Source of the DNA: Megasphaera elsdenii DSM 20460
GTDB taxonomy: Bacteria > Bacillota > Negativicutes > Veillonellales > Megasphaeraceae
DNA: 32,000 nucleotides
Assembly (NCBI RefSeq): GCF_003010495.1
Contig: NZ_CP027570.1
Coordinates: forward strand, 630,001 to 662,000
Reading direction: 5' to 3'
Below are positions 10,384 to 32,000 of the stretch, piece after piece (position 1 is the first letter of the stretch; each line of letters starts with the position of its first letter). The notes below the pieces were generated by a model that made no database searches, was not told where the DNA came from, and was given only the letters and a program-made list of their open reading frames with translations. Position numbers and translations under genes: made by a program.

Positions 10384-10480
10384 GGCAGTGATCACCTCTT
10401 GTAAAATCGTAAATCTATTATACTATAATCTGCCAGCCTTTGTCGTCGTTCCTCCATGATTTCTATGATATACGTCGATT

Positions 10481-10882: not shown

Positions 10883-11653
10883 ATGGAAAAAAAAGATACC
10901 CTGGTCCTCGGCGGCCACGAATTTACATCGCGCTTCATCTTAGGTTCCGGTAAGTTTTCTGTCGACCTCATCAAGGCCGCTGTCGAACAAGGCGGTGCCC
11001 AGATCGTAACCATGGCCCTGCGCCGCGTCGAAGCCGGTCAGAAAGATAACATCCTCGATTATATCCCGAAAAACGTCACCCTGCTCCCGAACACGTCGAG
11101 CGCCCGCACGGCAGACGAAGCCGTCCGCATCGCCCACTTGTCCCGTGAAATCGGCTGTGGCGACTTCATCAAGATCGAAGTCATGCGCGACTCCAAATAT
11201 CTCCTGCCGGACAACAACGAAACCATCAAAGCCACGGAAATCCTGGCCAAAGAAGGCTTCGTCGTCCTGCCCTATATGTATCCGGACCTCTATGCAGCCC
11301 GTGCCCTGGCTGACGCCGGCGCCGCTGCCATCATGCCCTTAGCTTCGCCGATCGGCACCAACAAAGGCTTGTCGACAAAAGATTTCATCCAGATCCTCAT
11401 CGACGAAGTCGACCTGCCGGTCATCGTCGACGCCGGTATCGGCCGTCCGTCCCAGGCTTGCGAAGCCATGGAAATGGGTGCCGCTGCCATCATGGCCAAT
11501 ACGGCTATCGCTACGGCCGGGGACCTGCCGCTCATGGCCAAAGCCTTTGGTGAAGCCATCCGCGCCGGCCGCAATGCCTACCTCGCCGGCCTGGGCCGCG
11601 TCCGTGAAACGGCTTCGGCATCGGATCCGCTGACAGGCTTCTTAGGCGATTAA
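10883..11653 (+). CDS. thiG: thiazole synthase
   Basis: 256 aa with a typical ThiG sequence ([54 protein letters not shown]). Confidence 0.93.
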
Positions 11654-11665
11654 GGAGGAATGAAC

Positions 11666-12853
11666 ATGACGGAAGAAACCAAAACCATCGACCAAAGCAA
11701 ACTCATCGATCATATGAAATATCTGCCGGGCATGGAAGTCATCGATTCGGACATGCTCGACCAGGTCGTCGCTATCCACGATTCCTTCAACAACGACGAT
11801 TTCACCGAAAAAGATGTCCGCCTGGCCTTGTCCAAAGAACATCTGGACCCGCGGGACTTCATGGCCCTCTTATCGACAGCTGCCGCTCCTTTCCTGGAAG
11901 AAATGGCTCAGAAAGCCCATTTAGTCACACGGCGCCACTTCGGCAACAACATCACCATCCTGACGCCGATCTACTTCGCCAACTACTGCGATAACTACTG
12001 CATCTACTGCGGCTTCAATTCGCACAACAAGATCAAGCGCGCCCGCCTGACCGACGAAGAACTCCACCGCGAATGTAAGAACATCGCCGACACGGGCATC
12101 GAAGAAGTCATCATGCTCACCGGTGAAAGCCCGAAGATGAGCGATATCAAATATATCGGCAACGCCGTCAAGATTGCCCGCCAGTACTTCCGGGTCATCA
12201 ACATGGAAATCTATCCGGTCAATTCGGAAGACTATAAATATCTCCACGAATGTGGCGCCGACTATGTCACGGTCTTCCAGGAAACATACAATTCCGACAA
12301 GTATGCTACCCTCCATCTGGCCGGCCACAAGCGCATCTTCCCATACCGTTTCTATTCCCAGGAACGGGCTATCCTCGGCGGCATGCGCGGCGTCGGCTTC
12401 GCAGCCCTCTTAGGCCTGGACGATTATCAGAAAGACGCTTTGGCTACGGGCATGCACGCATGGCTCATGCAGCGCAAATACCCGCACGCCGAAATTTCCC
12501 TGTCCTGTCCGCGCCTGTGCCCGATCATCAACAACGATAAGATCAACCCGAAGGACGTAGACGAACGGAAATTGACGCAGATTATCTGTGCCTACCGCTT
12601 GTTCATGCCCTATGCCAGCATCGTCGTATCGAGCCGCGAAAGCGCCCGCTATCGTAACGCCATCATGAAGATTGCCGCTACGAAAGTCTCGGCCAGTGTC
12701 TGCGTCGGCATCGGCGGCCACTTGGAAAACGATGGCTCCGAAATGGGCGACGAACAGTTCGAAATCACAGACGGCCGTTCCTTCGACCAGATGTATTCTG
12801 ACATCAAGAGCATGGGCCTGCAGCCGCTTACGAGTGAGTACATCTATTTGTAA
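11666..12853 (+). CDS. thiH: 2-iminoacetate synthase (radical SAM, tyrosine lyase)
   Basis: Has the CDNYCIYCGF radical-SAM cluster motif, the expected length, and the position after thiG. The second ATG (11666) has better spacing from AAGGAGG than 11660. Confidence 0.88.
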   Translation: MTEETKTIDQSKLIDHMKYLPGMEVIDSDMLDQVVAIHDSFNNDDFTEKDVRLALSKEHLDPRDFMALLSTAAAPFLEEMAQKAHLVTRRHFGNNITILTPIYFANYCDNYCIYCGFNSHNKIKRARLTDEELHRECKNIADTGIEEVIMLTGESPKMSDIKYIGNAVKIARQYFRVINMEIYPVNSEDYKYLHECGADYVTVFQETYNSDKYATLHLAGHKRIFPYRFYSQERAILGGMRGVGFAALLGLDDYQKDALATGMHAWLMQRKYPHAEISLSCPRLCPIINNDKINPKDVDERKLTQIICAYRLFMPYASIVVSSRESARYRNAIMKIAATKVSASVCVGIGGHLENDGSEMGDEQFEITDGRSFDQMYSDIKSMGLQPLTSEYIYL

Positions 12854-12900
12854 CCACTAACTTTGCTATCCATCACTATAATCCTATACATGTAGTACCG

Positions 12901-12946
12901 ACAAAAACGGTCCGGGACCCAATCCACCCCGAACCGTTTTTGTTAT
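12901..12946 (+). terminator. hairpin terminator after thiH
   Basis: ACAAAAACGGTCCGGG (12901..12916) pairs with CCCGAACCGTTTTTGT (12929..12944) with one mismatch. The A-run and T-run are part of the stem, so it could act in both directions. Confidence 0.55.
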
Positions 12947-13011
12947 AAATCCTCATGTTTTACAGCGTTTTAGTCATACAGAGCATCTATTATATTCTAT
13001 TAGTATAATTG

Positions 13012-13040
13012 TTGACGTTAGTATGAGATTCATGTATAGT
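13012..13040 (+). promoter_or_regulatory. candidate sigma-70 promoter
   Basis: TTGACG (13012..13017), a 17-nt spacer, then TATAGT (13035..13040), about 40 nt before the GTG start at 13080. Confidence 0.45.
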
Positions 13041-13079
13041 TATAGGTATAAAATACTCTAAATATTCAGGTGATAAATC

Positions 13080-13670
13080 GTGTTAAAAGTAGCTGCAATT
13101 ACAAATCACGAATTAGCCTCGACGAACTACTGGGATCAGCTCGAACAAATCGCCGCTTCCGACGTAGATTTCATCGTCCTTCGTGAAAAGAACCTTACCG
13201 AAGAAGAGTACACAGATTATGCCAAACGGGCGCTGCGCCTCTGCAGCATCCACCAGAAAACATGTGTCCTCCAACATTTCGGCAAGGCTGCCATCCGTCT
13301 CCACATTCCCCGTTTCCAGTGCTCTCTGCCTTATCTGGAAACCCATTCGTCCCTGCTCTACTACATGACGACCCTGGGCGTATCCGTCCACACCGTTGAA
13401 GAAGCCATCAAGGCCGAACAGCTCGGTGCTACATACCTCATGGCCAGCCATGTCTTCCCGACAGCCTGCAAGCCGTCGGACCCGCCCATCGGCGTCGATA
13501 CGGTCGAAGCCATCTGCAAGGCCGTCAAGATTCCCGTCTACGCCTTAGGCGGCGTCACGCCTAAGACCATCTCCCAGCTCCAGGACGTCCCCATCAAGGG
13601 CGTAGCCCTCATGTCAGGACTCATGACCTGCCCGGACGTACCGGAATACCTGAAGGAATTACGTGCCTAA
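13080..13670 (+). CDS. thiamine-phosphate synthase family protein (ThiE/TenI; subtype not resolved)
   Basis: 196 aa with a TIM-barrel ThiE/TenI-like pattern (DFIVLREK, GVSVH, YLMASHVFPT, PVYALGGV). It appears to start at GTG. I cannot separate ThiE from the TenI tautomerase by eye. Confidence 0.7.
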   Translation: MLKVAAITNHELASTNYWDQLEQIAASDVDFIVLREKNLTEEEYTDYAKRALRLCSIHQKTCVLQHFGKAAIRLHIPRFQCSLPYLETHSSLLYYMTTLGVSVHTVEEAIKAEQLGATYLMASHVFPTACKPSDPPIGVDTVEAICKAVKIPVYALGGVTPKTISQLQDVPIKGVALMSGLMTCPDVPEYLKELRA

Positions 13671-13688
13671 GCAGGAGGGATGACCGCA

Positions 13689-14210
13689 ATGACCCAGGCT
13701 TATATCATCATCGATATGCAGAATGATTTCATCGATGGCGCCCTCGGCAACGCCCAGGCACAGGCCATCGTCCCGAAGGTAGAAGCGAAGATCGTCGCCA
13801 GCAAGAAAGATGAAGACCAGGAAACGGACCTCATCTTCACGCAAGATACACACGGCGAAGATTACAGCGAAACCCAGGAAGGCCGAAAACTCCCGATTCC
13901 GCACTGTATCAAAGACACGCGGGGCTGGCGCATCTGCAAACAGCTCCTGCCCTACACCATGTGGGCAACGATACTGGAAAAGCCATCCTTCGGCTGCCCG
14001 ACCCTGGTCGACGAAGTCCGTGACTACGACCGGCTGGTCCTCATGGGCTTGTGCACCGACATTTGCGTCATCGCCAATGCCATGATGCTAAAATCCTTTT
14101 ATCCGGAAAAAGAAATCATCGTCGACAGCACCTGTTGTGCCGGCTCGACACCAGAAAACCACGAAAAAGCATTACAGGCCATGAAAGCCTGCCAAATCGA
14201 TATCCTATGA
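13689..14210 (+). CDS. isochorismatase-family cysteine hydrolase (nicotinamidase/pyrazinamidase-like)
   Basis: Begins YIIIDMQNDFIDGAL and has a catalytic-Cys context (LMGLCTDICV). The ATG at 13689 is better spaced from GGAGGG than 13680. Confidence 0.8.
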   Translation: MTQAYIIIDMQNDFIDGALGNAQAQAIVPKVEAKIVASKKDEDQETDLIFTQDTHGEDYSETQEGRKLPIPHCIKDTRGWRICKQLLPYTMWATILEKPSFGCPTLVDEVRDYDRLVLMGLCTDICVIANAMMLKSFYPEKEIIVDSTCCAGSTPENHEKALQAMKACQIDIL

Positions 14211-19615: not shown

Positions 19616-20728
19616 CTAATACAACTTCTTATAAATGCCGTACACCTTATCGTAATCGAGGGGCACAAAACTGTGCTTCATGAGACGCTGCTGATTTTCG
19701 ATGACCGACTTAGCAAATTCCGGCAATTCTTCTTCTTTGACGCCGTATTCATGGAGCGCTTTTTTGGGCAGGATGACGTTGAGCAGTTTTTCCAGTTCTG
19801 CATAGACATTTTCCGGTTCGCAGCCCAGGATATCGGCAATGAAGCGATTCAACTTAGCGATTTCCCCATCTGATTTGATGGACATGTAGCAGTTCATGAC
19901 GCCTGTGAACATGGCGTAGTTCGATTCCCCATGAGGAACATGATATTTCGCCCCTAAGGGATAGCTCATGGCGTGAACCGCAGCGCAACCCGGGACGCTG
20001 AAGGCGATGCCGGCCCAGTTGCTGGCCAGGAGAAAATCTTTCATGAGCGGAATACGGGCTTCCGGACCGTGGTCGCGGATCTGCAAGTACCCTTTGAGGA
20101 TGAGTTCGATGGCGTTATAACTGAAGACGCGGAAGCTGGCGCTGGAATCCGGAGACAAGGCCGATTCGACAGCGTGAACCAGGGCGTCGATGGAGCTGGT
20201 CGCAAAGACCTTGAACGGCAGGGTCTTCAAGAGCTGCGAAATGAGGACAGCCTTGTCGGCATACAGGGCGTTGTCGGCAAGGCCCTTCTTCGTATTGCGG
20301 CTGACCAGGGCCATGACCGATACATTGGTGACTTCGCTGCCCGTCCCGCATGTCGTCGGGATGAGGATGAGTTCCTTTTCTTTTTCCACAGGAATCTTGC
20401 CATCGAATAAATCGAGGACCGGGCTGACCTGCTTCAAGACGAACAACTTGCACAAGTCCATGACCGTGCCGCCGCCGATACCGATGATGCGCTTCACATC
20501 TTTCGGCATATCTTTATAAATGGCTTCGGCCATTTCATCAGACGGTTCACCCATACCATACTTTTCCTGGAACAAGACGTGGCACGTAAGGCCTAAGTCC
20601 TTAAAATTCGGGTCGAAGATGTACTGATTGGTAATAATCAAATCATCCGCCCCAACCTGCAAATCTTCCACAAACTCCCGGCATGTATCATAAGAGTAAA
20701 TCGTCGGTTTCAACTGTAATTCAATCAT
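19616..20728 (-). CDS. 4hbD: NAD-dependent 4-hydroxybutyrate dehydrogenase (iron-containing alcohol dehydrogenase family)
   Basis: 370 aa. LFQEKYGMGEPSDEM, GIGGGTVMD, PTTCGTGSEVTN, YHVPHGE and the C-terminal YKKLY closely parallel my memory of Clostridium kluyveri 4HbD. Confidence 0.8.
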   Translation of the reverse strand: MIELQLKPTIYSYDTCREFVEDLQVGADDLIITNQYIFDPNFKDLGLTCHVLFQEKYGMGEPSDEMAEAIYKDMPKDVKRIIGIGGGTVMDLCKLFVLKQVSPVLDLFDGKIPVEKEKELILIPTTCGTGSEVTNVSVMALVSRNTKKGLADNALYADKAVLISQLLKTLPFKVFATSSIDALVHAVESALSPDSSASFRVFSYNAIELILKGYLQIRDHGPEARIPLMKDFLLASNWAGIAFSVPGCAAVHAMSYPLGAKYHVPHGESNYAMFTGVMNCYMSIKSDGEIAKLNRFIADILGCEPENVYAELEKLLNVILPKKALHEYGVKEEELPEFAKSVIENQQRLMKHSFVPLDYDKVYGIYKKLY

Positions 20729-20834: not shown

Positions 20835-20931
20835 GGGGGAGGATGGGTTCTGGTGTTCCCTCTGGTCTTCAAAACCAGCATGAGGGGTTAAGAGCTTCTC
20901 AGGTGGGTTCGATTCCCACACTTCCCCGCCA
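20835..20931 (+). tRNA. selC: tRNA-Sec (anticodon UCA)
   Basis: The anticodon stem CTGGT/ACCAG encloses the loop CT-TCA-AA. The D-arm has a 6-nt/4-nt/6-nt layout (GGGTTC TGGT GTTCCC). A long extra arm (TGAGGGG/CTTCTCA, 7 bp) is present, as is the T-arm GTGGG-TTCGATT-CCCAC. The acceptor GGGGGAG pairs with CTTCCCC, followed by discriminator G and an encoded CCA. The 5' end is accurate to within 1 nt. Confidence 0.8.
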
Positions 20932-21802: not shown

Positions 21803-22888
21803 TTATTTTCCTAATGCATCAGCCTTCATAATGGCATCATACACTTCATCTGCTGTAATGTCAGCACGCACATTTTTTGTAAACTGAGTTGGTACAGTAG
21901 CTGCTTCCGCAACCAGACGGATTTCTTCTTCTTTTACATCCTTAATCCCTAAATCAGCTAAGCATGAAGGAAGTCCTACCGATTTTATATAGTGTAATAC
22001 TGTGTCCCACTCATCTTTTGGTGCTTTTTCTAAAATAAGCTGCGCGAGTAATCCAAAAGCAACTTTTTCACCATGGGAAGCTCCGTGGGCCTGTGGGACA
22101 TGGGCAAAACCATCATTGATAGCATGAGCTGCCGCAAGGCCTCCCGACTCAAACCCGACACCACTAAGATAGACGCAGGCTTCAATGACCCGTTCCAAAG
22201 CAGAATTTACCTCCTGTTTTTCAACGGCATTGAGCGCTTCCAGTGAATCATTTAATAAAGTTTTATAACATAATGCAGCCAAGGCTAATGCCGTTGCTGA
22301 ACAAGCTCCACGAGCCATGGTTTTAGCCCCACTACGTTGGCAAGCACGTGCTTCAAAATAGGTAGATAAGGCATCCCCCATACCAGAGACCAAATATTTT
22401 TTAGGCGCTTGAGCGATAATCCCAGTATCGACTAAAACGAGATCCGGATTATGTTTCATCATTAAAGCCTTGATAACGACGCCCTGTTCATTGTAAATAA
22501 CAGCTACACTGCTGCACGGTGCATCATTAGAAGCAATAGTAGGGATAATAATCGTCGGCAAATCACCTAAATTAGTAGCCACGGCTTTAGCCGTATCCAG
22601 AGCTTTACCTCCACCTACGCCAATGATAGCATCACAGCCGTGCTGATAAGCTATATCTTGTGCATCAGCGATTGCCTTTTTAGAACATTCACCTTGAAAT
22701 TCAGCATAAAATACGGATTTATTCGCACTATTCAGAGCCTTGTCAATGCGTTCACCAATTCTTCGCTTATTATTAGGTGACAGCAAGACTAAAAAGCTAT
22801 TGCCCATTTTCTTAACATACTTCCCTAATTTATCCAACTCTCCATTGCCTTGCACATAATATCCCGGGGCTTTAATTCCAATCGTCAT
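21803..22888 (-). CDS. glycerol dehydrogenase-family (GldA-like) iron/zinc alcohol dehydrogenase
   Basis: 361 aa with GVGGGKALDTAK, PTIASNDAP, GMGDALSTYFEA, AAHAINDGF and HGEKVAFG. The physiological substrate is not deducible. Confidence 0.82.
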   Translation of the reverse strand: MTIGIKAPGYYVQGNGELDKLGKYVKKMGNSFLVLLSPNNKRRIGERIDKALNSANKSVFYAEFQGECSKKAIADAQDIAYQHGCDAIIGVGGGKALDTAKAVATNLGDLPTIIIPTIASNDAPCSSVAVIYNEQGVVIKALMMKHNPDLVLVDTGIIAQAPKKYLVSGMGDALSTYFEARACQRSGAKTMARGACSATALALAALCYKTLLNDSLEALNAVEKQEVNSALERVIEACVYLSGVGFESGGLAAAHAINDGFAHVPQAHGASHGEKVAFGLLAQLILEKAPKDEWDTVLHYIKSVGLPSCLADLGIKDVKEEEIRLVAEAATVPTQFTKNVRADITADEVYDAIMKADALGK

Positions 22889-22976: not shown

Positions 22977-23591
22977 CTATGAACAGAAATCAGGCATTTC
23001 TTGAAGACGGCAAACCAATGTGTATACATCTTCTCCGACCCGATAAACGAGTAAATCACGATTTTCGTCGGTACAGGGAATATTCGATTCCTCCCCACCA
23101 TTCAGGTTATCATGACAAATACTGTTCAGGTCTTCAAAAATTTCCATGACGCCCTCTTCTCCTTTGCGGACAATCCGTAAAAGATCATTAAAGTAGAGTT
23201 TATCTTCATCATCATATTTAAAAATAGTACACCAACGGCTTAACAACTCTTCTTCATTCATACCCGTTTTTTGAGAAATCAAAGTCTTTTGAGAAGCTAA
23301 TAAAAGCAGCATGCATGATAAATAAGATTTTACGACCAGTGGGATATGATCCTTAACCTTAGCAAAATACCGGCGATGCGACCAATAGCCATCAAAAGTC
23401 AAATCATTCTTTTCCAAAAACTCTTTGATTCCATCATTGGCCGATACCCCGCAAATCATGAAAAAACGCTTCATTGATTCATTCGTCGACTTGCTTTTCG
23501 CATTCATCAAGCATTTTTTTACGAAGAATTCGCAGACCTCTGTCGTATTCGATTTTGTCAGTTTGCGCAATAAATCACCATAATACTGCAT
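22977..23591 (-). CDS. hypothetical protein, 204 aa (no family recognised)
   Basis: A clean ORF with the RBS CCGGAGG 7 nt upstream, on the same strand as and tightly packed within the abfD operon. The sequence MQYYGDLLRKLTKSNTTEVCEFF...LQEMPDFCS has no motif I recognise. Confidence 0.55.
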   Translation of the reverse strand: MQYYGDLLRKLTKSNTTEVCEFFVKKCLMNAKSKSTNESMKRFFMICGVSANDGIKEFLEKNDLTFDGYWSHRRYFAKVKDHIPLVVKSYLSCMLLLLASQKTLISQKTGMNEEELLSRWCTIFKYDDEDKLYFNDLLRIVRKGEEGVMEIFEDLNSICHDNLNGGEESNIPCTDENRDLLVYRVGEDVYTLVCRLQEMPDFCS

Positions 23592-23625: not shown

Positions 23626-25074
23626 TTATTTTTCTGCGCCTTCCTTTTCAGCATTCAGTTCTTTTAAAGCTGCAACATTGAAAATCGGGTCAGATTTCGT
23701 ATTGTACAGAGACATTTTACGTTTAAAGAAGTTTTTACCAAATACGAGCAGGCAAAGGACAATGCCAACACCCAGAGCCATAGCAGCCCCACGAGATACG
23801 AGGACGCCACCAATAACACCGGCAACGCCGAGGTCATTAAAAGTCTTGGAACGGAGTACACCGACACGAACGGCAACATAGCCTTGAATCAACATGGTCA
23901 ATGCCAAAGCAATCGGCAGAACCGGCTTAACAAAGCTTACGATAGGAGATAACCAATAGCCAGTGAATGTACCTAAACGGAAAGATGCAACGCCGCCAAT
24001 CAGGCTATCCATCGCTTCACGACCATGTTTATAACGTTCACAAATAACGACCTGCATAGCTGCCCATAACGGACCGCACATGGAAAGGTCAGGGCCTAAC
24101 AAGGACATAACCATATTACGGACACCAACAATAACGTTATTTCTGTTAGCATCGAAATGGATATTTTCATCACCATGACGGAATTCACGAGCTTCATCGA
24201 TCAAGGCGTCGGCCTGAATCAATTCACCAAAGAGTACAACGTAAGTTGCAATGACCAACGGAGCAGCTTGGATATAATAAGTCATACCTGGGAAGCCAAT
24301 GCGTTCAGCAAAAGGACTCCACTGGGTAAAGACTTCAATGAAGTGGGGATGAGTAAAGCCCATTTCAATAGTCGGCCAAGGCAATTCGCCCACCAACGGA
24401 GCAATAATGACGGCCAGAACCATCGCCGGCAATAACCCCAAGTCAGAAATAACCTGAAAAACTTTATTTTTATTCATGATACTCTTGAAATGGTTACTAA
24501 AAGAGCAATAAAAAGCAAAGCCTACAGCAATAGCGATGGTAAATGGATATTTATCAAAGTTACCGCCCGTATTGAATACCAGGCGTACAGCAGCAATACC
24601 GGCGCCGATAAGAATCCCGGATTTCAAAGCATCAGGAACTAAATCGACAACGCGTTTAGCAAGACCCGTAGCACCTAATAAGAACGTGAGTAACCCGAGT
24701 TCAAATTCAAAAGCGATAAGTGCATGCATACGTTCTGCTGTATCATTAGGAAATTCTCCCAACCACAGCAATAACAGCGGAATAGCCGGAGTGATCCAGC
24801 CAGGGACAACAGGGTCCCCTAAGTGAGCATGCCAAGTATATAAGAACCCGTTCATGATAACAATAGTAATAGCGATTTCAAAAGGCATCCCTAAATATTC
24901 TTGCAATACTGGGATGATGCCGAGACAAACGGCACATAACAGCAGCCCTTGAACATAATCAGGCCATTCAAAGCGATAATGAATGAAAGGTAAACGCAGG
25001 ACTAAGTTAAATACGTGTAAATTAATCCCCGGTTGTATTTCGCCTTCTTTTCGTTTATAAACAGGACCAAACAT
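23626..25074 (-). CDS. polytopic membrane permease (family unresolved; possibly NCS2/SulP-like)
   Basis: 482 aa with at least 10 hydrophobic helices and a hydrophilic C-terminal tail. The RBS is AGAGGGG. The substrate is unknown; its neighbours suggest a 4-hydroxybutyrate- or GABA-related solute. Confidence 0.7.
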   Translation of the reverse strand: MFGPVYKRKEGEIQPGINLHVFNLVLRLPFIHYRFEWPDYVQGLLLCAVCLGIIPVLQEYLGMPFEIAITIVIMNGFLYTWHAHLGDPVVPGWITPAIPLLLLWLGEFPNDTAERMHALIAFEFELGLLTFLLGATGLAKRVVDLVPDALKSGILIGAGIAAVRLVFNTGGNFDKYPFTIAIAVGFAFYCSFSNHFKSIMNKNKVFQVISDLGLLPAMVLAVIIAPLVGELPWPTIEMGFTHPHFIEVFTQWSPFAERIGFPGMTYYIQAAPLVIATYVVLFGELIQADALIDEAREFRHGDENIHFDANRNNVIVGVRNMVMSLLGPDLSMCGPLWAAMQVVICERYKHGREAMDSLIGGVASFRLGTFTGYWLSPIVSFVKPVLPIALALTMLIQGYVAVRVGVLRSKTFNDLGVAGVIGGVLVSRGAAMALGVGIVLCLLVFGKNFFKRKMSLYNTKSDPIFNVAALKELNAEKEGAEK

Positions 25075-25215: not shown

Positions 25216-26520
25216 TTATCCTTCAAACTTACAATGGAAGCGTTTTTCAAATTCTGCAATCAATCCTTCTCTAAAATCAGGATGGGCAATCTTAATGAGA
25301 GCAATAGCACGCTGCCGCAAAGTACGTCCTTTAAGAGGAGCGATACCAAATTCCGTAATAATATAGTCTACATCATTGCGGGAGGTCGTAACAGCAGCCC
25401 CTTCATCTAAGAGCGGCACAATCTTAGAAATCTTACCATGACCAGCAGTCGAAGGCATAGCAATAATGGCTTTACCACCCTTTGCACGAGATGCACCACG
25501 AACGAAGTCAACCTGACCGCCGACGCCGCTGAATTGTTTATAGCCAATCATTTCGGCATTGACCTGTCCCATCAAATCGACTTGCATAGCCGAGTTGATA
25601 GAGATGATATTGTCAATTTTAGCTACGACAAAGGGATCATTAGTGTAATCGACACGTTCCATTAATACATCGGGATTGTTATTTACAAAATCATACAGTT
25701 TCTTTGTCCCCATAAGGAAGCAAGAGACAAATTTCCCCTGGTCAATCGTCTTTTTCTTGTTCGTGATAACGCCTTTACGAGCCAAGTCGACAACGCCATC
25801 AGAGAACATTTCGGAATGAATCCCTAAATCCTTTTTATCTCCGAGGAAGGACAAGACAGCATCCGGAATAGCACCGATACCAAGCTGCAGCGTATCACCA
25901 TCATGAATCAGTGATGCTACATATTCCCCAATTTTATGTTCCGTTTCCCCAATTTTAGGCGGTTGCAATTCAATAAGGGGTTCATCTTTTTCGACGATAT
26001 AATCGATATCTTTTAAATTAATGCCATTCCCATAGGTATAGGGCATATTTTTGTTAATCTGTGCAATAACCAGCTTGGCAGCTTCTGCAGCCGGCTGTGT
26101 ATAGTCAACAGAAACCCCATAAGAGCAAATGCCATTTTCATCGGGTTCACTGAGCTGTAAAAAAGCGACGTCAACAGGTAAGGTACCATCTGTAAAGAGC
26201 TTGGGAATTTCATGGAAGAAGCACGGTGTATAATCTCCACGGCCTTCTTCTACGGCTTTGCGAGTTGAGCCACCTACGAACAGGGCATTATGGCGAAAAT
26301 GTTTTTCCATCCCCGGTTGGCAATAAGGAGCTTTCCCCATAGCAACCATATGAACAATTTCAACATTTTCAAGGCGATCTGCCTGGCGAACTAATTCATC
26401 TGTCAAAGCCTGCGCTTCACCACAAGCATGGGTGAAAACAATACGATTGCCGGATTGGACATGGCTTACAGCTTCTTCAACAGATACAATTTTTTCTGCA
26501 TATTCTTTTCTCCAATCCAT
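25216..26520 (-). CDS. abfT: 4-hydroxybutyrate CoA-transferase (acetyl-CoA hydrolase/transferase family)
   Basis: About 434 aa. MDWRKEYAEKIVSVEEAVSHVQSGNRIV, GEAQ, and GGQVDFVRGA near the C-terminal domain fit the Cat2/AbfT type, and it is adjacent to abfD. I trimmed the start to the ATG at 26520. Confidence 0.82.
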   Translation of the reverse strand: MDWRKEYAEKIVSVEEAVSHVQSGNRIVFTHACGEAQALTDELVRQADRLENVEIVHMVAMGKAPYCQPGMEKHFRHNALFVGGSTRKAVEEGRGDYTPCFFHEIPKLFTDGTLPVDVAFLQLSEPDENGICSYGVSVDYTQPAAEAAKLVIAQINKNMPYTYGNGINLKDIDYIVEKDEPLIELQPPKIGETEHKIGEYVASLIHDGDTLQLGIGAIPDAVLSFLGDKKDLGIHSEMFSDGVVDLARKGVITNKKKTIDQGKFVSCFLMGTKKLYDFVNNNPDVLMERVDYTNDPFVVAKIDNIISINSAMQVDLMGQVNAEMIGYKQFSGVGGQVDFVRGASRAKGGKAIIAMPSTAGHGKISKIVPLLDEGAAVTTSRNDVDYIITEFGIAPLKGRTLRQRAIALIKIAHPDFREGLIAEFEKRFHCKFEG

Positions 26521-26543
26521 TACACACACCTACTTTCGTATAA

Positions 26544-26679: not shown

Positions 26680-28131
26680 TTATTCTTCAATGTGTGCAAT
26701 AGCTTTAGCCAAGGCTTTCTTCATACGCAAGTTGCCCTGACGGGAAATCATGATACGCTGTGCCTGCGGCGAACCTGCACCGTGCATGGATTCTGTACGA
26801 TAACCAACAGCTGCCGTGCCGAGGCTGAGGTTTTCGATGAGGCGTAAGATTTTGAGACGATTTTCTGTCGATACATTATTAACGCCGCGGAGGTATTTAT
26901 CAATGTACGGCCCAATCTTCGGATCACGGAGGTCTTTTTCAGACGGTGCTGTAACCATCAAGCCACCAGCAATATCTTCGGCTAAACGGACGATTTCATA
27001 GGGGAAGCGCGTAACATTCTGTTTGCAGACGTTTGCCAGGAGCAAATCGATGAGATAGTTGCCTGATTCCGTTTTCGTACCCAATGCCGAGCAAGCAATA
27101 CCGCAAGCATACAGGGTTTCGTTGAGGTGCTGCATTTCAATGATTTTATCTTTAATATGGGAAGCTTTCGGACAGCCATTATAGTCAGCAGCAACCGCAG
27201 CAGCACCGATAAGGACGTCACCTACGCCAACTTTGCAGCCGCCATAGGACTGACGATGATAACCCGCGAAGCGTTCAACGAGGACGCCGGCAAATTCATA
27301 TTCTCCATTCAGATAAATATTTTCGTTCGGGATGAAGACATTATCAAAGATAACCAGAGCTTCCGTACCACCAAATTCAGGGTTGCCCGTATCCATCGGA
27401 GCGCCTTCCATTTTACGAGTATCGCAAGACTGACGGCCAACAATCATGAAAATACCTTCAGCATCTGTCGAGCAGGAGAAGCAGACTGCGTAGTCTTTGT
27501 CATCTTCGCCCATAGAGATGGTCGGCATGACGATGACTTCATGAGAGTTAATGAAACCAGTTTGGTGAGCTTTTGCCCCACGGACTACGATGCCGTCCGG
27601 ACGACGTTCTACAACATGGAGATAGAGGTCCGGATCTGCCTGTGCATGCGGAGCCAAACCACGGTCACCTTTCGGGTCTGTCATAGCGCCGTCAACGGTA
27701 AGGTCTTCCATCTGTACCCGTTTGAGGAATTTCATGAAGTTTTCATGGTATTTCGTGCCATATTTTTTATCCGTATCATACGTCGTGGAGAATACCGCAT
27801 TAAAAGCATCCATGCCAACGCAACGCTGGAAGCAGGAAGCCGTTTTCTGACCACACAGACGCTGCATTTTTACTTTATTCATCAAGTCCGTCGTGCTCTG
27901 ATGAATATGGGTGAAGCGGTTAACACGTTCGCCAGTGTACGGAGAGATTGCTGTCATCAGGTCCTGATATTCAGGCTGCTGAGCCAGATCATACGTCATG
28001 CGGACGGAGTTCATGGACGGACGGAGAATCGGATCATCTGCCGGACACGGAACTTTTTTACCAAACATGTAGACTTGTAAATTTTTCTTTCTCATGCTTT
28101 CGATGTACTGTTCGCCTGTCATTAATGCCAT
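26680..28131 (-). CDS. abfD: 4-hydroxybutyryl-CoA dehydratase / vinylacetyl-CoA delta-isomerase
   Basis: 483 aa. MALMTGEQYIESMRKKNLQVYMFGKKV... parallels the N-terminus of Clostridium aminobutyricum AbfD as I recall it. The size and the abfT neighbour both fit. Confidence 0.88.
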   Translation of the reverse strand: MALMTGEQYIESMRKKNLQVYMFGKKVPCPADDPILRPSMNSVRMTYDLAQQPEYQDLMTAISPYTGERVNRFTHIHQSTTDLMNKVKMQRLCGQKTASCFQRCVGMDAFNAVFSTTYDTDKKYGTKYHENFMKFLKRVQMEDLTVDGAMTDPKGDRGLAPHAQADPDLYLHVVERRPDGIVVRGAKAHQTGFINSHEVIVMPTISMGEDDKDYAVCFSCSTDAEGIFMIVGRQSCDTRKMEGAPMDTGNPEFGGTEALVIFDNVFIPNENIYLNGEYEFAGVLVERFAGYHRQSYGGCKVGVGDVLIGAAAVAADYNGCPKASHIKDKIIEMQHLNETLYACGIACSALGTKTESGNYLIDLLLANVCKQNVTRFPYEIVRLAEDIAGGLMVTAPSEKDLRDPKIGPYIDKYLRGVNNVSTENRLKILRLIENLSLGTAAVGYRTESMHGAGSPQAQRIMISRQGNLRMKKALAKAIAHIEE

Positions 28132-28211: not shown

Positions 28212-28227
28212 AGCAAAAATCATGCCA
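28212..28227 (-). promoter_or_regulatory. candidate sigma-54 (-24/-12) promoter of the abfD operon
   Basis: Minus strand reads CTTGGCATG-ATTT-TTGCT-C, with TGGCAT at 28227..28222 and TTGCT at 28216..28212. Compared with the consensus TGGCACG-N4-TTGCW it has one mismatch. The predicted start is about 70 nt before ATG 28131. Confidence 0.5.
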
Positions 28228-28409
28228 AGTAGTGCCTTTAATATTTTTATTTTAATTTCTTCCGTGAAAAGCATAGCAACTATCCCATCTTTGAAACTTA
28301 AAAAAATTTTCTCCCTTATTTTGTGCTATATTTCACGTTATTTTTGTTATGTTTATAACGTTTTCCCGTTCCATTTTTGGCTCAAATATTTTGGTTTTTC
28401 GTTCCATAT

Positions 28410-28435
28410 ATGAAACAAATTACCATTTGTTTCAT
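28410..28435. promoter_or_regulatory. perfect 10-bp inverted repeat (candidate activator/operator site)
   Basis: ATGAAACAAA (28410..28419), TTACCA, TTTGTTTCAT (28426..28435). It lies about 185 bp upstream of the minus-strand -24 box and about 220 bp upstream of the plus-strand one. Confidence 0.4.
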
Positions 28436-28656: not shown

Positions 28657-28672
28657 TGGCACGATAATTTCA
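28657..28672 (+). promoter_or_regulatory. weaker sigma-54-like -24/-12 element before the Nfu-like gene
   Basis: TGGCACG (28657..28663), ATAA, TTTCA (28668..28672). The -24 box is perfect, but the -12 box has TTTC instead of TTGC. It sits 41 nt before ATG 28713. A sigma-70 -10 (TATAAT, 28676..28681) is an alternative reading. Confidence 0.3.
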
Positions 28673-28712: not shown

Positions 28713-29012
28713 ATGACTCTATCAATTCGAGAACAAATCGAAAAAGTCTTAGAAAAAGATGTCCGCCCTTCGCTTGCAGAACATCAAGGCGACGTCGTCA
28801 TTGTCGATTATGCTGATCACATTTTACGAATCCGTTTAACCGGTCAATGCAGCGGCTGTCCTTCAGCACAGCTGACGACAGAAGAATTAATCAGTGCAAA
28901 AGTCCGCGAAGCCATCGAAGACGTCCATGATGTCATTCTCGTCAGTGGCGTCAGCGATACACTGATTGCACAGGCTAAAGCCATTTTAAGAGAACGCCAT
29001 ACACAGAGGTGA
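28713..29012 (+). CDS. NifU C-terminal-domain (Nfu-like) Fe-S scaffold/carrier protein
   Basis: 99 aa. VRPSLAEHQGDV...RLTGQCSGCPSAQLT is the Nfu/NifU_C CxxC motif. Confidence 0.8.
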   Translation: MTLSIREQIEKVLEKDVRPSLAEHQGDVVIVDYADHILRIRLTGQCSGCPSAQLTTEELISAKVREAIEDVHDVILVSGVSDTLIAQAKAILRERHTQR

Positions 29013-29016
29013 ATCT

Positions 29017-29748
29017 ATGAAAATAGGGATAAAATACTGCGGCGGCTGTAATCCACGCTATGATCGCAGCCATGAAGTAGACAAACTAAAAAAAAGATTC
29101 CCCCAACACACGTTTACCTATGAAATAGAAAATACAGTTTGCGACATCTGCCTCCTCGTCTGTGGCTGCATGACGGCCTGTGCCGAGGAAACAGGGCTTG
29201 CCGCTCGAAAATTCAAAAAACTTTGTACACCACAACAATTTGCGGCTTTCGCCAAAGAATTAAAAGACGCACCTCAAGAAATGCCTGATACGAAGAAGTC
29301 TATTTACTTGGGAGCTGTTGCTACCATGGAAAAGACTTTCACAGAAGAAGATATCCAACAATTTGCAAAGCTAACCGGTGATTATGGAAAACTACATACA
29401 GATGCCGCATTTGCTGCAAAATATGGATTTGGTCGTCCTGTCGTCCACGGCATTTTGACAGGAAGTTTACTATCTTCGATTATGGGCACCACTTTGCCAG
29501 GAGCCGGAACCATTTTAATGGATGAACAATTGACATTTACAGCCCCGGTTTATGCAGGTGACACCATCACAGCTTCTATAAAACTAGTCCATGTCGAAGA
29601 AAAAAAACGCTGGTACATCGGAAAATTCACAGGCACCTGCAAAAAGTCAGATGGAACAGTAGCTGTAGAAGGTACGATTCACCAATTAATGATGAAGACC
29701 TTATTCACATACTGTAGAAACATTCAAAATAATCAATCATTAGAATAG
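29017..29748 (+). CDS. fusion protein: Cys-rich CGGC-like N-terminal module plus MaoC-like (R)-hydratase/dehydratase hotdog domain
   Basis: The first 56 residues hold 8 Cys (KYCGGCNPRYDR...VCDICLLVCGCMTAC). The C-terminal part has FAKLTGDYGKLHTDAAFAAKYGFGRPVVHGIL, the typical MaoC signature. Confidence 0.72.
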   Translation: MKIGIKYCGGCNPRYDRSHEVDKLKKRFPQHTFTYEIENTVCDICLLVCGCMTACAEETGLAARKFKKLCTPQQFAAFAKELKDAPQEMPDTKKSIYLGAVATMEKTFTEEDIQQFAKLTGDYGKLHTDAAFAAKYGFGRPVVHGILTGSLLSSIMGTTLPGAGTILMDEQLTFTAPVYAGDTITASIKLVHVEEKKRWYIGKFTGTCKKSDGTVAVEGTIHQLMMKTLFTYCRNIQNNQSLE

Positions 29749-29758
29749 GAGTATTATC

Positions 29759-29995
29759 ATGACAAATTTAGAAAAATACGACAACCTTTTTATGAACAGC
29801 TTCAAATTGAAAAAAGAAGATCTTCCCGGTTTAAAATATCGCAGCATAAAGTTGTGGGATTCAATGGGCCATATGAATTTGATGGAAGAAATGGAAGATA
29901 CTTTCGATATCTCTATTGATACCCCTGATGTCTTAGCATTCAGCTCTTATGAAAAAGGAATGGATATTTTGCGGAAATACGGAGTTGATATCTAA
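29759..29995 (+). CDS. acyl/peptidyl carrier protein-like (phosphopantetheine attachment)
   Basis: 78 aa. LWDSMGHMNLMEEMEDTF fits the D-S-(L/M) attachment motif and the helix II context. The RBS is AGGAG. Confidence 0.68.
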   Translation: MTNLEKYDNLFMNSFKLKKEDLPGLKYRSIKLWDSMGHMNLMEEMEDTFDISIDTPDVLAFSSYEKGMDILRKYGVDI

Positions 29996-29996
29996 T

Positions 29997-30665
29997 ATGC
30001 CTGTGGATATACACCTTCACTGCATCACAGATCCACTGACCCATAGTAATTGTTACATTCTCTCAGAAAAATCCCGCACACTTATCATTGATCCAAACTG
30101 TTACCAAGAAATCCATTCCTATCTTACGACTCATCAACTTGTTCCCGAGTATATCATTTTGACGCATGAGCACTGCGATCACATCGCAGCGCTCAATGAT
30201 ATGCGTAAGTATTATAGCTTAAAAGTACTTTGTAGTGCGGCATGCAGTCAAGGGATTCAAAGCACGACACTAAATATGACCCGTATCATGGAGACCTATT
30301 TATACTTTAAGAGCCAAGGGGAGCTCCAGGTCTCCTATCCCCCTTTTACTTGCCAAGCTGCCGATATCATTTTTGACAATACTTACTTAGCTACTTGGCA
30401 AAACCATACTATCTTTTGTATTACAGCACCCGGCCATACTCCAGGCAGCACCTGCATCATCATAGATGAAAAGATGTTATTTTCTGGCGACTACTTTATT
30501 CCTGGCGAAGAAGTCATCACCCGTCTTCCTGGTGGAGACGAAGAAACTTATGAGCAACAAGGAAAAGCCACTTTGCGTTGTCTGCCAACACCGATATTAA
30601 CTTATCCGGGCCATGGTGAACCATTTATATTGACACAGGAGGTGAAAAAAAAATATGGACTATAG
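29997..30665 (+). CDS. MBL-fold metallo-hydrolase
   Basis: Has the THEHCDH (HxHxDH) motif, a later PGHTPGS and a terminal GHG. I set the start at ATG 29997 (MPVDIHL), immediately after the carrier-protein stop. Confidence 0.78.
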   Translation: MPVDIHLHCITDPLTHSNCYILSEKSRTLIIDPNCYQEIHSYLTTHQLVPEYIILTHEHCDHIAALNDMRKYYSLKVLCSAACSQGIQSTTLNMTRIMETYLYFKSQGELQVSYPPFTCQAADIIFDNTYLATWQNHTIFCITAPGHTPGSTCIIIDEKMLFSGDYFIPGEEVITRLPGGDEETYEQQGKATLRCLPTPILTYPGHGEPFILTQEVKKKYGL

Positions 30666-31722
30666 TAATTGGTTGATGCAACCGCCTTACCATTGGACAC
30701 AGGACGAAAAAGAAGCCCATTACGTGCCTCTCTTATTCGAATTGACTTCTCACCACTGTCATTGCTGTCAACCTTATGGTCAAGCGATACAAACGCTGTA
30801 TGAGAAAAATAAAAGATATGACTCTTCCAACCAAATCCCAATGCTTCCTATTTCTTTATTTAAAACAGAAGAACTAAAAAGCATCCCTGATTCCGAAATT
30901 TTTAAAGTAATCACTTCGTCGGGAACATCGGGAGTGGCATCTCATTTATACCTCGACGCCTTTAACGCACAAAATCAACAATTGGCCTTATATAACATCG
31001 TGAAAGACTTTATTGGCTCCTCGCGACTCCCCATGTTGATTGTCGATACGCCGGATATATTAAAAAATCGAGACGCCTTTAATGCCCGCGGGGCAGCGGT
31101 CTTGGGCTTTTCCATCTTTGCTAAACGAAAATATTACGCATTAAAACCAGATCTATCCGTTGATTTGGAAAGCATCCGCACATTCATTCAGACATATCGT
31201 AATCAACCGGTCTTAATCTTTGGCTTTACTTTTATGATTTGGCAGTATCTTTGTGAAGCGCTGGCAAACTATCCAGGTTTAATTGATTTATCCAATGCAA
31301 TTTTAATCCACGGCGGAGGCTGGAAAAAAATGCAGGACCGCGCGGTTTCACCTCACGAGTATAAGAAACGGCTATATGAACAGTTCCAGATCCATAAAGT
31401 CCACAATTATTATGGCATGGCTGAACAAACAGGATGTATTTATATGGAATGTGAACAAGGCCATCTTCATGCCAGCATATTCTCCGATATTATCATTCGC
31501 AATCCAGAAAACTTTTCAGTCTGTCCCGTAGGAGAAACGGGCATTGTCCAAGTATTGACTCCACTGGCCACGTCCTATCCGGGTCATTCTATCCTGACAG
31601 AAGATATGGGCACCCTGTTAGGAATCGATGACTGCCCTTGTGGCCGTTTAGGAAAATATTTCCGCATTGATGGCCGCATGGCAAAAGCCGAAATAAGGGG
31701 GTGTAGTGATGCGCACAACTAA
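30655..31722 (+). CDS. LuxE-like acyl-protein synthetase (adenylate-forming)
   Basis: 355 aa. The N-terminus is followed by SSGTSG, and the length fits the LuxE/PaaK-like fold. The RBS is GGAGGTGA. It overlaps the MBL gene by 11 nt. Confidence 0.7.
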   Translation: MDYSNWLMQPPYHWTQDEKEAHYVPLLFELTSHHCHCCQPYGQAIQTLYEKNKRYDSSNQIPMLPISLFKTEELKSIPDSEIFKVITSSGTSGVASHLYLDAFNAQNQQLALYNIVKDFIGSSRLPMLIVDTPDILKNRDAFNARGAAVLGFSIFAKRKYYALKPDLSVDLESIRTFIQTYRNQPVLIFGFTFMIWQYLCEALANYPGLIDLSNAILIHGGGWKKMQDRAVSPHEYKKRLYEQFQIHKVHNYYGMAEQTGCIYMECEQGHLHASIFSDIIIRNPENFSVCPVGETGIVQVLTPLATSYPGHSILTEDMGTLLGIDDCPCGRLGKYFRIDGRMAKAEIRGCSDAHN

Positions 31723-32000
31723 AAGCTTCACGATACTTGCCGGTTCGATTCCAGAAAAAATTATGCCCCAACAACCTTTTTCTCCGCTAACCTTGCAGTT
31801 TTGCCAAGATTTCGCGCACCAATTACAACAACGGCCTATCGCCAAAGAAGAGCCTGACTGGGCCGCTTTCAGTTTTTGGCTGCGCCCGCGAAAATTAGAA
31901 AGTTATAGAAAACTACTCACTTTTCCTGAAAAAAGATTAGGCCGAGGATTGACCTTTCATATAGCGCCAGCGAATATGCCTACCATGTTTTTATATAGTT
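31709..32000 (+). CDS. LuxC-like acyl-CoA/acyl-protein reductase (N-terminal part; continues beyond the window)
   Basis: My translation from ATG 31709 is MRTTKSFTILAGSIPEKIMPQQPFSPLTLQFCQDFAHQLQQRPIAKEEPDWAAFSFWLRPRKLESYRKLLTFPEKRLGRGLTFHIAPANMPTMFLYS. It stays open to position 32000. HIAPANMP...F.YS resembles the LuxC family. It overlaps the LuxE-like gene by 14 nt. Confidence 0.6.
   Translation, partial: MRTTKSFTILAGSIPEKIMPQQPFSPLTLQFCQDFAHQLQQRPIAKEEPDWAAFSFWLRPRKLESYRKLLTFPEKRLGRGLTFHIAPANMPTMFLYS

Follow-up and report, generated by a model that had tools for sequence, protein, structure and literature searches.

Carrier-protein cassette with LuxE- and LuxC-type enzymes opposite the 4-hydroxybutyrate operon of Megasphaera elsdenii

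Described systems related to the locus

The 4-hydroxybutyrate route is one of four recognised bacterial butyrate routes and is surveyed by means of its marker genes abfD and abfT. In Clostridium kluyveri and C. aminobutyricum, succinate or 4-aminobutyrate is converted to butyrate via Cat1, SucD, 4HbD, AbfT/Cat2 and AbfD. Here, we analyse a stretch of 32,000 nucleotides of the Megasphaera elsdenii DSM 20460 genome (NZ_CP027570.1, positions 630,001 to 662,000), referred to as the window, in which genes for an acyl carrier protein (ACP), an MBL-fold hydrolase and LuxE- and LuxC-type enzymes are located next to an abfD operon. The region is the right half of a divergent, sigma-54-controlled operon pair, the left operon of which encodes the route from 4-hydroxybutyrate to crotonyl-CoA with a putative permease, AbfT, AbfD and a GldA-type alcohol dehydrogenase (ADH). 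AbfD and AbfT of M. elsdenii are close orthologues of the clostridial pathway enzymes and a 4HbD-like ADH is adjacent, but the locus lacks SucD, Cat1 and an aminotransferase and has the carrier cassette at the place expected for the entry step.

The most similar gene set described so far is a predicted XanR sigma-54 regulon that pairs abfD-nifU-hyp-ach-golB with acp-caiC-luxEC (Nie et al. 2019, BMC Genomics, PMC6615313). In C. kluyveri, it comprises CKL_3020... and CKL_3027...; the prediction is computational, confined to Clostridium, carries the label 'Butyrate/Butanol synthesis' and proposes no role for the cassette. As judged from gene listings, regulon and M. elsdenii locus share the families abfD, nifU, CoA-transferase, acp, AMP-ligase, luxE and luxC. 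By position and size, the small hypothetical protein of the regulon is probably AF_0334, and by position and family, the M. elsdenii GldA-type ADH probably corresponds to golB. Both systems have an adjacent PAS-AAA+ activator gene and promoters of the TGGCA-N5-TTGC type, and the activator-site-like repeats of M. elsdenii resemble the GTTGCA-N4-TGCAAC type of the regulon. M. elsdenii differs by the addition of an MBL hydrolase, by the fusion of AF_0334 to a MaoC domain, by an rpoN gene inside the operon, by its gene order (ACP-MBL-LuxE-LuxC-ligase versus acp-caiC-luxE-luxC in Clostridium) and by diverged activator sites and a diverged -12 element. Apart from the table of Nie et al., our literature search retrieved no paper linking AbfD with LuxE, LuxC or ACP, and a search for the C. 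kluyveri locus tags CKL_3025-3030 retrieved nothing.

Related carrier cassettes are found in glycan loci. The Vibrio cholerae genes wbeK-O / rfbK-O (VC0248-VC0252) are assigned to the synthesis of an N-acyl group, tetronate. Compared by description, the chemistry proposed for them equals the route favoured below minus the sugar transfer, and WbeL, with 471 residues and a putative ATP-binding domain, can be set beside the 472-residue ligase of M. elsdenii. Besides the ligase, the tetronate set comprises an ACP, reductase functions similar to LuxE/LuxC and an Fe-dependent ADH (Fe-ADH). The V. cholerae genes reside in an O-antigen locus that also encodes a transferase, and they serve N-acyl decoration, whereas the M. 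elsdenii cassette has catabolic neighbours, a thioesterase-like MBL hydrolase and no glycan or transferase genes. Flagellin glycosylation islands of Aeromonas group II and Enterobacteriaceae, for which 'fatty-acid-synthesis-like' genes have been described, contain an ACP/FabG/AMP-ligase/LuxE/LuxC set whose four core genes are homologous to those of M. elsdenii (LuxE 47-54% identity). Different from M. elsdenii, these cassettes include an SDR (FabG), lie among pse genes and glycosyltransferases without abfD, nifU or AF_0334, and belong to a separate LuxE branch. Taken together, the flagellin glycan of Aeromonas piscicola AH-3 (PMC7874193) and the glycan-type cassette loci of our locus set, such as L051 and L061, suggest that the ACP/ligase/LuxE/LuxC cassette of the glycan type may produce an acyl group resembling tetronate, by analogy to V. 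cholerae O1.

With the luciferase fatty-acid reductase LuxC-LuxE(-LuxD), the M. elsdenii proteins share the LuxE adenylation motifs and acyl-cysteine and the LuxC active-site cysteine motif. LuxC is only distantly related and about 80 residues shorter than its luciferase counterpart, the gene lists of loci L001-L006 contain no luxA/luxB or luxD, and the context leads us to expect a short C4 acid as substrate rather than myristate.

Known before this work were the gene identities (public annotation), the pairing in one regulon (Nie et al. 2019) and the widespread ACP/ligase/LuxE/LuxC quartet. New are four observations: the abfD-linked cassettes form a distinct LuxE branch with members from several phyla; NifU, AF_0334 and the hydratase can be set apart from the cassette and assigned to the AbfD side; the hot-dog domain fused to AF_0334 comes from either of two families, MaoC-type or FabZ-type; and in some genomes the island has its own rpoN.

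Proteins of the cassette and of the AbfD side

Six plus-strand open reading frames (ORFs), nifU to luxC, are separated by gaps of 4, 10 and 1 nt and overlaps of 11 and 14 nt. The genes 3' of 32 kb were taken from HE576794.1 (GCA_000283495.2, 2.47 Mb; locus L004), to which the window is identical at 11346 of 11346 overlapping bases; there, the operon continues with the complete LuxC-like reductase, an AMP-binding ligase of 472 residues and rpoN. The block consists of two modules: AbfD-side helpers (NifU and AF_0334-MaoC) and a carrier cassette (ACP, MBL hydrolase, LuxE, LuxC and AMP-ligase).

The cassette starts with a 78-residue ACP (29759..29995, plus strand), also publicly annotated as acyl carrier protein. 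The single sequence has no Pfam match, reaches only E=3e-3 with NCBIfam ACP models and E of about 0.6-1 against the PDB, while a 12-sequence profile matches more than 40 ACPs or D-alanyl carrier proteins of the PDB (best E=1.6e-4). Its invariant Ser35 lies in a WDSxGH motif (W33-D34-S35) and aligns with the phosphopantetheine serine (DSL of ACP 2fq0). The following gene (29997..30665, plus strand) encodes a glyoxalase-II-like MBL-fold hydrolase (PF00753, 45.5 bits) with a metal motif of the HxHxDH type, HEHCDH within THEHCDH. It likely starts at ATG 29997 (222 residues, GGAG 12 nt upstream) and not at 29949, in agreement with the 222 residues of the public annotation. The nearest models and structures are hydroxyacylglutathione hydrolases, i.e., thioester hydrolases, all below equivalog cut-offs, and the protein is considered a putative acyl-ACP thioesterase. 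In three loci without the MBL gene (L067, L068 and L071), a gene for a PaaI hot-dog thioesterase is located just after the ligase gene.

LuxE (30655..31722, plus strand) is an adenylating acyl-protein synthetase by family (PF04443, E=3e-51, 175 bits versus a 24.9-bit cut-off, residues 10-353). Its full-length alignment to Photobacterium phosphoreum LuxE (7xc6_E) extends to the acyl-cysteine at the C-terminus (GCS), which in the P. phosphoreum enzyme is part of the acylated-cysteine motif TRxxKGCxLS (PMC9157457). SSGTSG (88-93; SSGTxG) and RGCSD (348-352) are invariant in 21 homologues. Of the LuxC-type acyl-thioester reductase, whose start codon is ATG 31709, the window contains only the N-terminal 97 residues (31709..32000, plus strand). 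The full protein has 396 residues, ends 1190 nt after its start and matches PF05893 (E=3e-24, 86 bits versus a 21-bit cut-off, residues 72-240); the 97-residue fragment in the window gives no hidden Markov model (HMM) match. A single-sequence search of the PDB returned no match for LuxC and a family profile was required, which matches Photobacterium LuxC (7xc6_A) with DQNACSSP aligned to the active-site DQQACFST. C232 of this motif is invariant in 11 homologues. With 28 bits versus a cut-off of 750 in the NCBIfam LuxC equivalog model, the protein is not an orthologue of luminescence LuxC. On the Paludibacteraceae contig CAVIYT010000175.1 (L028, 10001-12277), LuxE and LuxC constitute a single ORF of 758 residues, a fusion that supports a putative direct acyl transfer between both activities. 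The nearest solved relatives of the ligase activate oxalate, succinylbenzoate and malonate.

The first helper gene (28713..29012, plus strand) encodes an Nfu-type NifU domain protein (PF01106, E=2e-21, 76 bits versus a 27-bit cut-off) with a CxxC motif, CSGC within GQCSGCP. Judged by gene adjacency only, it is likely an Fe-S cluster carrier for AbfD; the abfD-nifU adjacency is also found in cassette-less genomes and in published operon lists. The second helper (29017..29748, plus strand) combines an AF_0334 Cys4 domain (PF27236, residues 1 to about 90) with a PhaJ-like MaoC domain (PF01575, E=2e-19, 70 bits, about residues 95-243). The AF_0334 domain contains the invariant cysteines C8, C11, C51 and C55 in the pattern CxxC...GCxxxC. 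A profile search of the PDB gave no match to it, and its AlphaFold model (pLDDT 82) gave no significant fold match, the best being generic small alpha/beta folds (E=0.09). The four cysteines and the genomic context together suggest a function, and we read NifU and AF_0334 as partners that would mature or repair AbfD, a [4Fe-4S]/FAD enzyme. In the MaoC domain, the catalytic pair D122 and H127 of the LTGDYGKLHTD motif is conserved in at least 90% of 43 fusions. The structure model of this domain (pLDDT 93) has its best fold match in PhaJ (1iq6; E=2e-15, TM 0.90, 36-37% identity), the (R)-specific enoyl-CoA hydratase of Aeromonas caviae. PhaJ prefers short-chain substrates, such as crotonyl-CoA.

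The original prediction for this stretch, which was made from its letters, had described six tightly packed or overlapping plus-strand genes next to AbfD and a cluster that continues past the window. The six genes were indeed found at the predicted positions, with no gap larger than 10 nt. The proposed NifU, MaoC, MBL and LuxE identities agree with the HMM matches to PF01106, PF01575, PF00753 and PF04443, and the LuxC-like assignment is confirmed by the PF05893 match of the full 396-residue protein. The 78-residue carrier protein is supported by the profile matches to PDB ACPs and by Ser35, the AbfD neighbour by its 781-bit match to 1u8v, and the continuation by the rest of LuxC, the AMP-ligase and rpoN in HE576794.1.

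On the minus strand, AbfD (26680..28131) matches PDB 1u8v over its full length, and AbfT (25216..26529) matches 3eh7 with 561 bits and 3gk7 with 490 bits, both of which are 4-hydroxybutyrate CoA-transferases. The next gene (23626..25074, minus strand) encodes a membrane protein of 482 residues, a putative permease for the pathway substrate; matches to Pfam permease families are sub-threshold (Xan_ur_permease, E=5e-4, 19 bits versus a 27-bit cut-off). It adjoins abfT/abfD in seven genome loci and many metagenome loci, and Roseburia has a GntP permease at its position. A protein of 204 residues (22977..23591, minus strand) without a Pfam or NCBIfam match is seen in Megasphaera-type loci only (e.g., L007). 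The last gene of the operon (21803..22888, minus strand) encodes the GldA-type Fe-ADH (PRK09423, 475 bits versus a 336-bit cut-off), which has homologues with 56-82% identity in Megasphaera and Flavonifractor loci. Another Fe-ADH (19616..20728, minus strand; PF00465 and PF25137) is of the 4-hydroxybutyrate dehydrogenase type and shares 52-62% identity with ADHs in or beside the abfD operons of Christensenella, Lacrimispora-type loci and Treponema vincentii; it lies just outside the island described below and its membership is uncertain.

Distribution and sigma-54 control

Thousands of proteins share at least 50% identity with LuxE; from these, 80 loci were sampled in a species-representative genome collection and their neighbouring genes counted within 10 kb. 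The ACP/ligase/LuxE/LuxC quartet is nearly always complete. About 26 of the 80 loci show an abfD-type context; abfD itself (77-92% identity) is present within 10 kb in 21, and these contain abfT in 20 cases and NifU or AF_0334 likewise in 20. The abfD-type loci, which cover Negativicutes and Clostridia among others, include members from Megasphaera, Hungatella, Anaerostipes, Lacrimispora, Lachnotalea, Roseburia, Flavonifractor, Treponema vincentii and a Paludibacteraceae genome, and many metagenome abfD loci have the same divergent layout. The remaining LuxE loci are of the glycan type, most with an SDR-like gene and none with abfD, and in a neighbour-joining LuxE tree a single split divides both types. 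No acyltransferase, glycosyltransferase or condensing enzyme was found within 10 kb in any abfD-type locus.

The arrangement varies between lineages. In Lacrimispora-type loci, which have a LysR regulator, the cassette separates a group of sucD-like, 4hbD, abfD and CoA-transferase genes from the genes thl, crt, hbd, bcd and etfBA. A CoA-acylating aldehyde dehydrogenase is encoded in seven of the 21 abfD genome loci, all of them Lacrimispora-type. Flavonifractor has a single operon for permease, abfD, nifU, AF_0334-FabZ, gldA-like, abfT, ACP, MBL, luxE, luxC and ligase, and T. vincentii OMZ 806 (L022, NZ_CP050497.1, 6281-11077) carries nifU, AF_0334-FabZ, abfT, ACP, MBL and LuxE. A specialisation of AbfD for ACP substrates was considered and rejected, since the identities in cassette loci (77-92%) and cassette-less loci (73-80%) overlap.

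The helper module also occurs on its own. Standalone AF_0334 proteins of about 90 residues are encoded in abfD-nifU-AF_0334(-abfT-ADH) operons of Clostridium bovifaecis and Christensenella, which adjoin a PAS sigma-54 activator gene, and on a third contig a standalone AF_0334 gene directly follows abfD-nifU. Genes for ACP, LuxE and LuxC are absent from all three contigs, and many metagenome abfD loci likewise have nifU/AF_0334 without a cassette. The recurrence of abfD-nifU-AF_0334 as a trio suggests that AbfD, a radical enzyme sensitive to oxygen, has maturation factors of its own. In cassette loci, the fusion partner of AF_0334 is a hot-dog (de)hydratase, which is MaoC-type in 15 loci and FabZ-type in T. 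vincentii, Flavonifractor and Pseudoflavonifractor. Another cassette-less lineage encodes a bcd-like gene, a standalone MaoC and abfD consecutively, and because of this standalone MaoC upstream of abfD we assign the hydratase to the AbfD/crotonyl-CoA node. An action of the hot-dog domain on ACP cargo, which the restriction of the AF_0334 fusions to known cassette loci had suggested, was dropped in view of the standalone MaoC and the PhaJ match.

The cassette-less locus L126 (8310-11452) and similar metagenome loci (L120-L130 and L136) contain genes for an IclR regulator, a bcd-like acyl-CoA dehydrogenase, a standalone MaoC protein of 138 residues, AbfD and a PFOR of 1174 residues. In loci of this type, nifU/AF_0334 and a GldA-type ADH gene are located about 5 kb off on the opposite strand.

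The promoter sequences suggest that the cassette shares sigma-54 control with the 4-hydroxybutyrate pathway in gut anaerobes of several phyla. In M. elsdenii, the abfD operon is preceded by a sigma-54 type -24/-12 promoter, TGGCATGATTTTTGCT (28212..28227, minus strand), with the exact consensus TGGCAT-N5-TTGCT about 80 nt before abfD; it is kept in a Megasphaera metagenome-assembled genome (MAG) and has an exact match at the equivalent position in nine other loci. The operon from nifU to rpoN has the sigma-54 type promoter TGGCACGATAATTTCA (28657..28672, plus strand; TGGCAC-N5-TTTCA), 41 nt before the nifU ATG, which is identical across six M. elsdenii contigs and perfect in the Megasphaera MAG (TGGCACGTTTATTGCT). 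Between both promoters lies a direct repeat of two activator-site-like elements, GTTCCATTTTTGGCTC and GTTCCATATATGAAAC, 33 bp apart (28368..28416, no strand assigned). They align with GTTGCATTTTTGCATC and GTTGCAATTTTAAAAC of the Megasphaera MAG, which match the published XanR site GTTGCAnnnnTGCAAC. The M. elsdenii repeats are diverged, one having two mismatches to the GTTGCA-N4-TGCAAC consensus and the other more, while the sister Megasphaera sites are good. Facing pairs of exact TGGCA[CT]-N5-TTGC[TA] promoters are present in L007, L009, L011, L018, L022, L028, L067 and L068, which represent four phyla, and in L071 with one mismatch on the cassette side. Most of these loci have GTTGCA-N4-TGCAAC-like sites between the facing promoters; none was detected in L022.

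The rpoN gene (L004 13681-14958, about 2.3-3.6 kb beyond the window end; TIGR02395, 314 bits) is the last gene of this operon, as it is in L007, L018 and L068, and its sigma factor would drive transcription of its own operon. It is followed by a terminator-like hairpin (L004 15067-15084) and by the gene for a XanR-type PAS/AAA+/HTH sigma-54 activator (L004 15118-16581), which has its best NCBIfam match in PrdR and is 52-53% identical to activators encoded beside abfD in cassette-less genomes.

These comparisons modify the initial picture of the locus. The link to the abfD operon that the original prediction proposed is stronger than foreseen, as it is seen in synteny across phyla and in shared control by sigma-54 and its activator, and hydration of a crotonyl thioester by MaoC fits the PhaJ-like model and the standalone MaoC upstream of abfD. 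A single six-gene carrier cluster with two unusual companions had also been proposed; this view has to be given up, because NifU and AF_0334 accompany abfD without ACP, LuxE and LuxC. The statement that the gene combination is not a nameable pathway needs correction insofar as the set is listed by Nie et al. 2019; this computational listing does not amount to a characterised biosynthetic locus. The comparison with V. cholerae tetronate is fair for the chemistry and fails for the context, which offers no transferase or glycan genes.

Possible roles of the cassette and its genomic setting

We tentatively favour the view, plausible but far from assured, that the cassette uses ATP and NAD(P)H to reduce an ACP-bound C4 dicarboxylate, succinate, and feeds 4-oxo- or 4-hydroxybutyrate to AbfT/AbfD. 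The ligase would adenylate one carboxyl group of the dicarboxylate, most simply succinate, and load it onto ACP. LuxE would then adenylate the free distal carboxyl group and hand it on via its C-terminal cysteine to LuxC, which would use NAD(P)H to form the aldehyde, 4-oxobutanoyl-ACP. The 4-hydroxy compound would be formed by an Fe-ADH before or after release, and the MBL hydrolase, or in other genomes the PaaI-type thioesterase, would release the acid, 4-hydroxybutyrate or succinate semialdehyde, from the carrier. AbfT and AbfD would convert it to crotonyl-CoA, to be processed further by the fused hydratase or by Bcd/Etf. In this way, the cassette would be an ATP-driven, CoA-independent entry branch that replaces or supplements succinyl-CoA transferase and SucD.

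Several observations led to this proposal. A dicarboxylate is suggested by the combination of a single carrier with two adenylating enzymes that are independent of each other, and also by the substrates of the ligase's solved relatives. The 758-residue fusion argues that LuxE and LuxC are a self-contained acid reductase, while hydrolytic release is indicated by the resemblance of MBL to thioester hydrolases and by the PaaI gene after the ligase gene in the three MBL-less loci. Finally, there is a gap in the pathway to be filled: the published model of M. elsdenii as a chain-elongation host requires a route from succinate via succinate semialdehyde to crotonyl-CoA, and the CoA-acylating aldehyde dehydrogenase is limited to the seven Lacrimispora-type loci.

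A number of points weigh against this proposal. Two ATP-to-AMP activations per C4 unit are expensive for a fermenting organism. C. kluyveri and Lacrimispora-type loci encode SucD, and a succinate feeder looks redundant there; in some loci two CoA-transferases are encoded beside the cassette. Loci such as L028 contain the cassette, permease, AbfT and AbfD but no ADH within 10 kb, and imported 4-hydroxybutyrate would not need the cassette. The ADH of the M. elsdenii operon belongs to the GldA type, and enzymes of this family typically act on vicinal diols or hydroxy-carbonyl compounds. T. vincentii retains ACP, MBL and LuxE with no LuxC or AMP-ligase gene within 10 kb downstream, and its cassette may be partial or decaying. 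As regards co-regulation, the nifU-operon promoter has one mismatch, TTTC instead of TTGC in its -12 element, and the two matches to the promoter pattern in the window compare with 2.8 expected from shuffled sequence and are by themselves not above chance. The case for the promoters is instead that both matches occur in one spacer, each facing its own operon, and are conserved in the Megasphaera MAG and other loci.

In the Lux system, LuxE and LuxC work on free acids and no carrier is needed. They could thus reduce free succinate to succinate semialdehyde, which ADH would convert to 4-hydroxybutyrate, while the ligase would load 4-hydroxybutyrate or (R)-3-hydroxybutyrate on ACP as an ATP-driven priming device or alternative carrier beside the AbfT loop. 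The LuxE-LuxC fusion in L028 and the presence of an (R)-specific hydratase in every case are compatible with such sequential steps, and for the priming of a CoA-transferase loop by an AMP-ligase there are examples among other anaerobic pathways, e.g., caffeate respiration. We nevertheless regard this scheme as unlikely, because the operon also encodes a thioesterase-like MBL or PaaI that would reverse the loading, 4-hydroxybutyrate is already activated by AbfT, and the divergence of AbfD is no greater in loci with the cassette than in loci without it, with no sign of a switch from CoA to ACP substrates.

A biosynthetic role has a similarly low probability in our estimate. Here, the cassette would build an ACP-bound C4 hydroxyacyl group (4-hydroxybutyryl, 3-hydroxybutyryl or dihydroxybutyryl) that a transferase encoded elsewhere attaches to a surface glycan, a lipid or a small molecule, with intermediates of the pathway as the source. 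The homology of the four core genes to flagellin glycosylation island and O-antigen-type cassettes and the assignment of V. cholerae wbeK-O to N-acyl group synthesis speak for it, and a free-standing ACP usually passes its cargo to a transferase. Yet the abfD-type loci contain no acyltransferase, glycosyltransferase or condensing enzyme, their LuxE branch is apart from that of the glycan-type cassettes, and the operon includes a thioesterase-like gene. Moreover, the cassette is found within catabolic operons that also include thl, crt, hbd, bcd and etf, and it has a catabolic activator in common with abfD.

V. cholerae tetronate has been proposed to be malate-derived, and a malate/fumarate variant can also be drawn for the M. 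elsdenii genes, although we consider it improbable. The ligase would load L-malate via its C4 carboxyl group, LuxE/LuxC would reduce C1 to an alpha-hydroxy aldehyde, the GldA-type ADH would yield 3,4-dihydroxybutanoyl-ACP and the (R)-specific hot-dog dehydratase would remove the 3-hydroxyl group, so that a product at the level of 4-hydroxycrotonyl or 4-oxobutanoyl enters 4HbD, AbfT and AbfD. This variant employs all conserved parts, including both M. elsdenii ADH types and the obligatory MaoC/FabZ dehydratase; GldA-family enzymes act on hydroxy-carbonyl/diol pairs, and by our reasoning an L-malyl thioester has the right geometry for (R)-type hydratases. It requires, however, an additional double-bond isomerisation or enoyl reduction for which the locus has no obvious gene, and the MaoC domain is closest to PhaJ. 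The GldA-type ADH and a standalone MaoC are also found in cassette-less abfD loci, so neither is evidence for cassette chemistry. Least probable of all is an electron sink or solvent formation in which LuxE/LuxC, jointly a carboxylic acid reductase, and the frequently adjacent ADH reduce 4-hydroxybutyrate, butyrate or crotonate to aldehydes or alcohols: it fits the 'Butyrate/Butanol synthesis' label (PMC6615313) but leaves ACP, ligase and thioesterase without a role, spends ATP unattractively on electron disposal and lacks an ADH in some loci.

The 4-hydroxybutyrate genes, the cassette, rpoN and the activator gene, about 18 kb in total, look like a genomic island at selC. The tRNA-Sec gene (20835..20931, plus strand; Rfam RF01852, 71.7 bits; ARAGORN anticodon tca) coincides exactly with a step in GC content, from 0.54 on its left to 0.42 on its right, and the low GC content persists for about 18 kb rightward (window 20.9-32 kb and L004 1-18600). 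No tRNA-Sec segment of at least 12 nt is repeated elsewhere in the 41.7 kb examined, and no integrase was noticed in the locus gene lists. According to a preprint, one M. elsdenii strain is without cat1 and abfD, which is in keeping with an island. On contig L006, the seeming loss of the Cys-MaoC gene is a scaffold N run and no deletion.

Downstream of the activator gene follow genes for an FMN-dependent dehydrogenase and an SDR. The former (PF01070, L004 16587-17621) overlaps the end of the activator gene and encodes a Cys-rich N-terminal stretch, CYVCPDCDGNAC; it has no counterpart among the other 80 loci and is probably outside the system. The upstream genes of the window are unrelated (thiamine synthesis, phosphotransferase system, flavodoxin and hexokinase). 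An Rfam scan of the window at gathering thresholds detected tRNA-Sec alone, with no riboswitch match in the 581-nt intergenic region and no TPP riboswitch upstream of the genes at 10883-14210, which comprise thiG, a thiH-like radical SAM gene and thiE. A protein of 426 residues (9115-10395, minus strand) contains the hexokinase pair PF00349 and PF03727 of the eukaryotic type (E=2e-43 and 9e-36), a family that, to our knowledge, is uncommon among bacteria.

The conserved five-gene cassette, which is co-regulated with abfD/abfT, is present in Megasphaera, Lachnospiraceae, Flavonifractor, Treponema and one Paludibacteraceae genome, and in C. kluyveri according to Nie et al. 2019, and the analysis provides a concrete, testable biochemical hypothesis for it. 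It is possible, though in our judgement rather doubtful, that the cassette represents an unrecognised ACP- and ATP-using, CoA-free entry into butyrate fermentation in many gut, oral and rumen anaerobes including C. kluyveri, and that it moves between phyla as a self-contained island with its own sigma-54 factor and activator. If the cassette feeds the pathway from succinate or another C4 dicarboxylate, an acid reductase of the LuxC/LuxE kind would, together with an ACP, have a catabolic function, which is rare; its enzymes could be useful for making 4-hydroxybutyrate or 1,4-butanediol precursors, and pathway maps and metabolic models would gain a new entry step.

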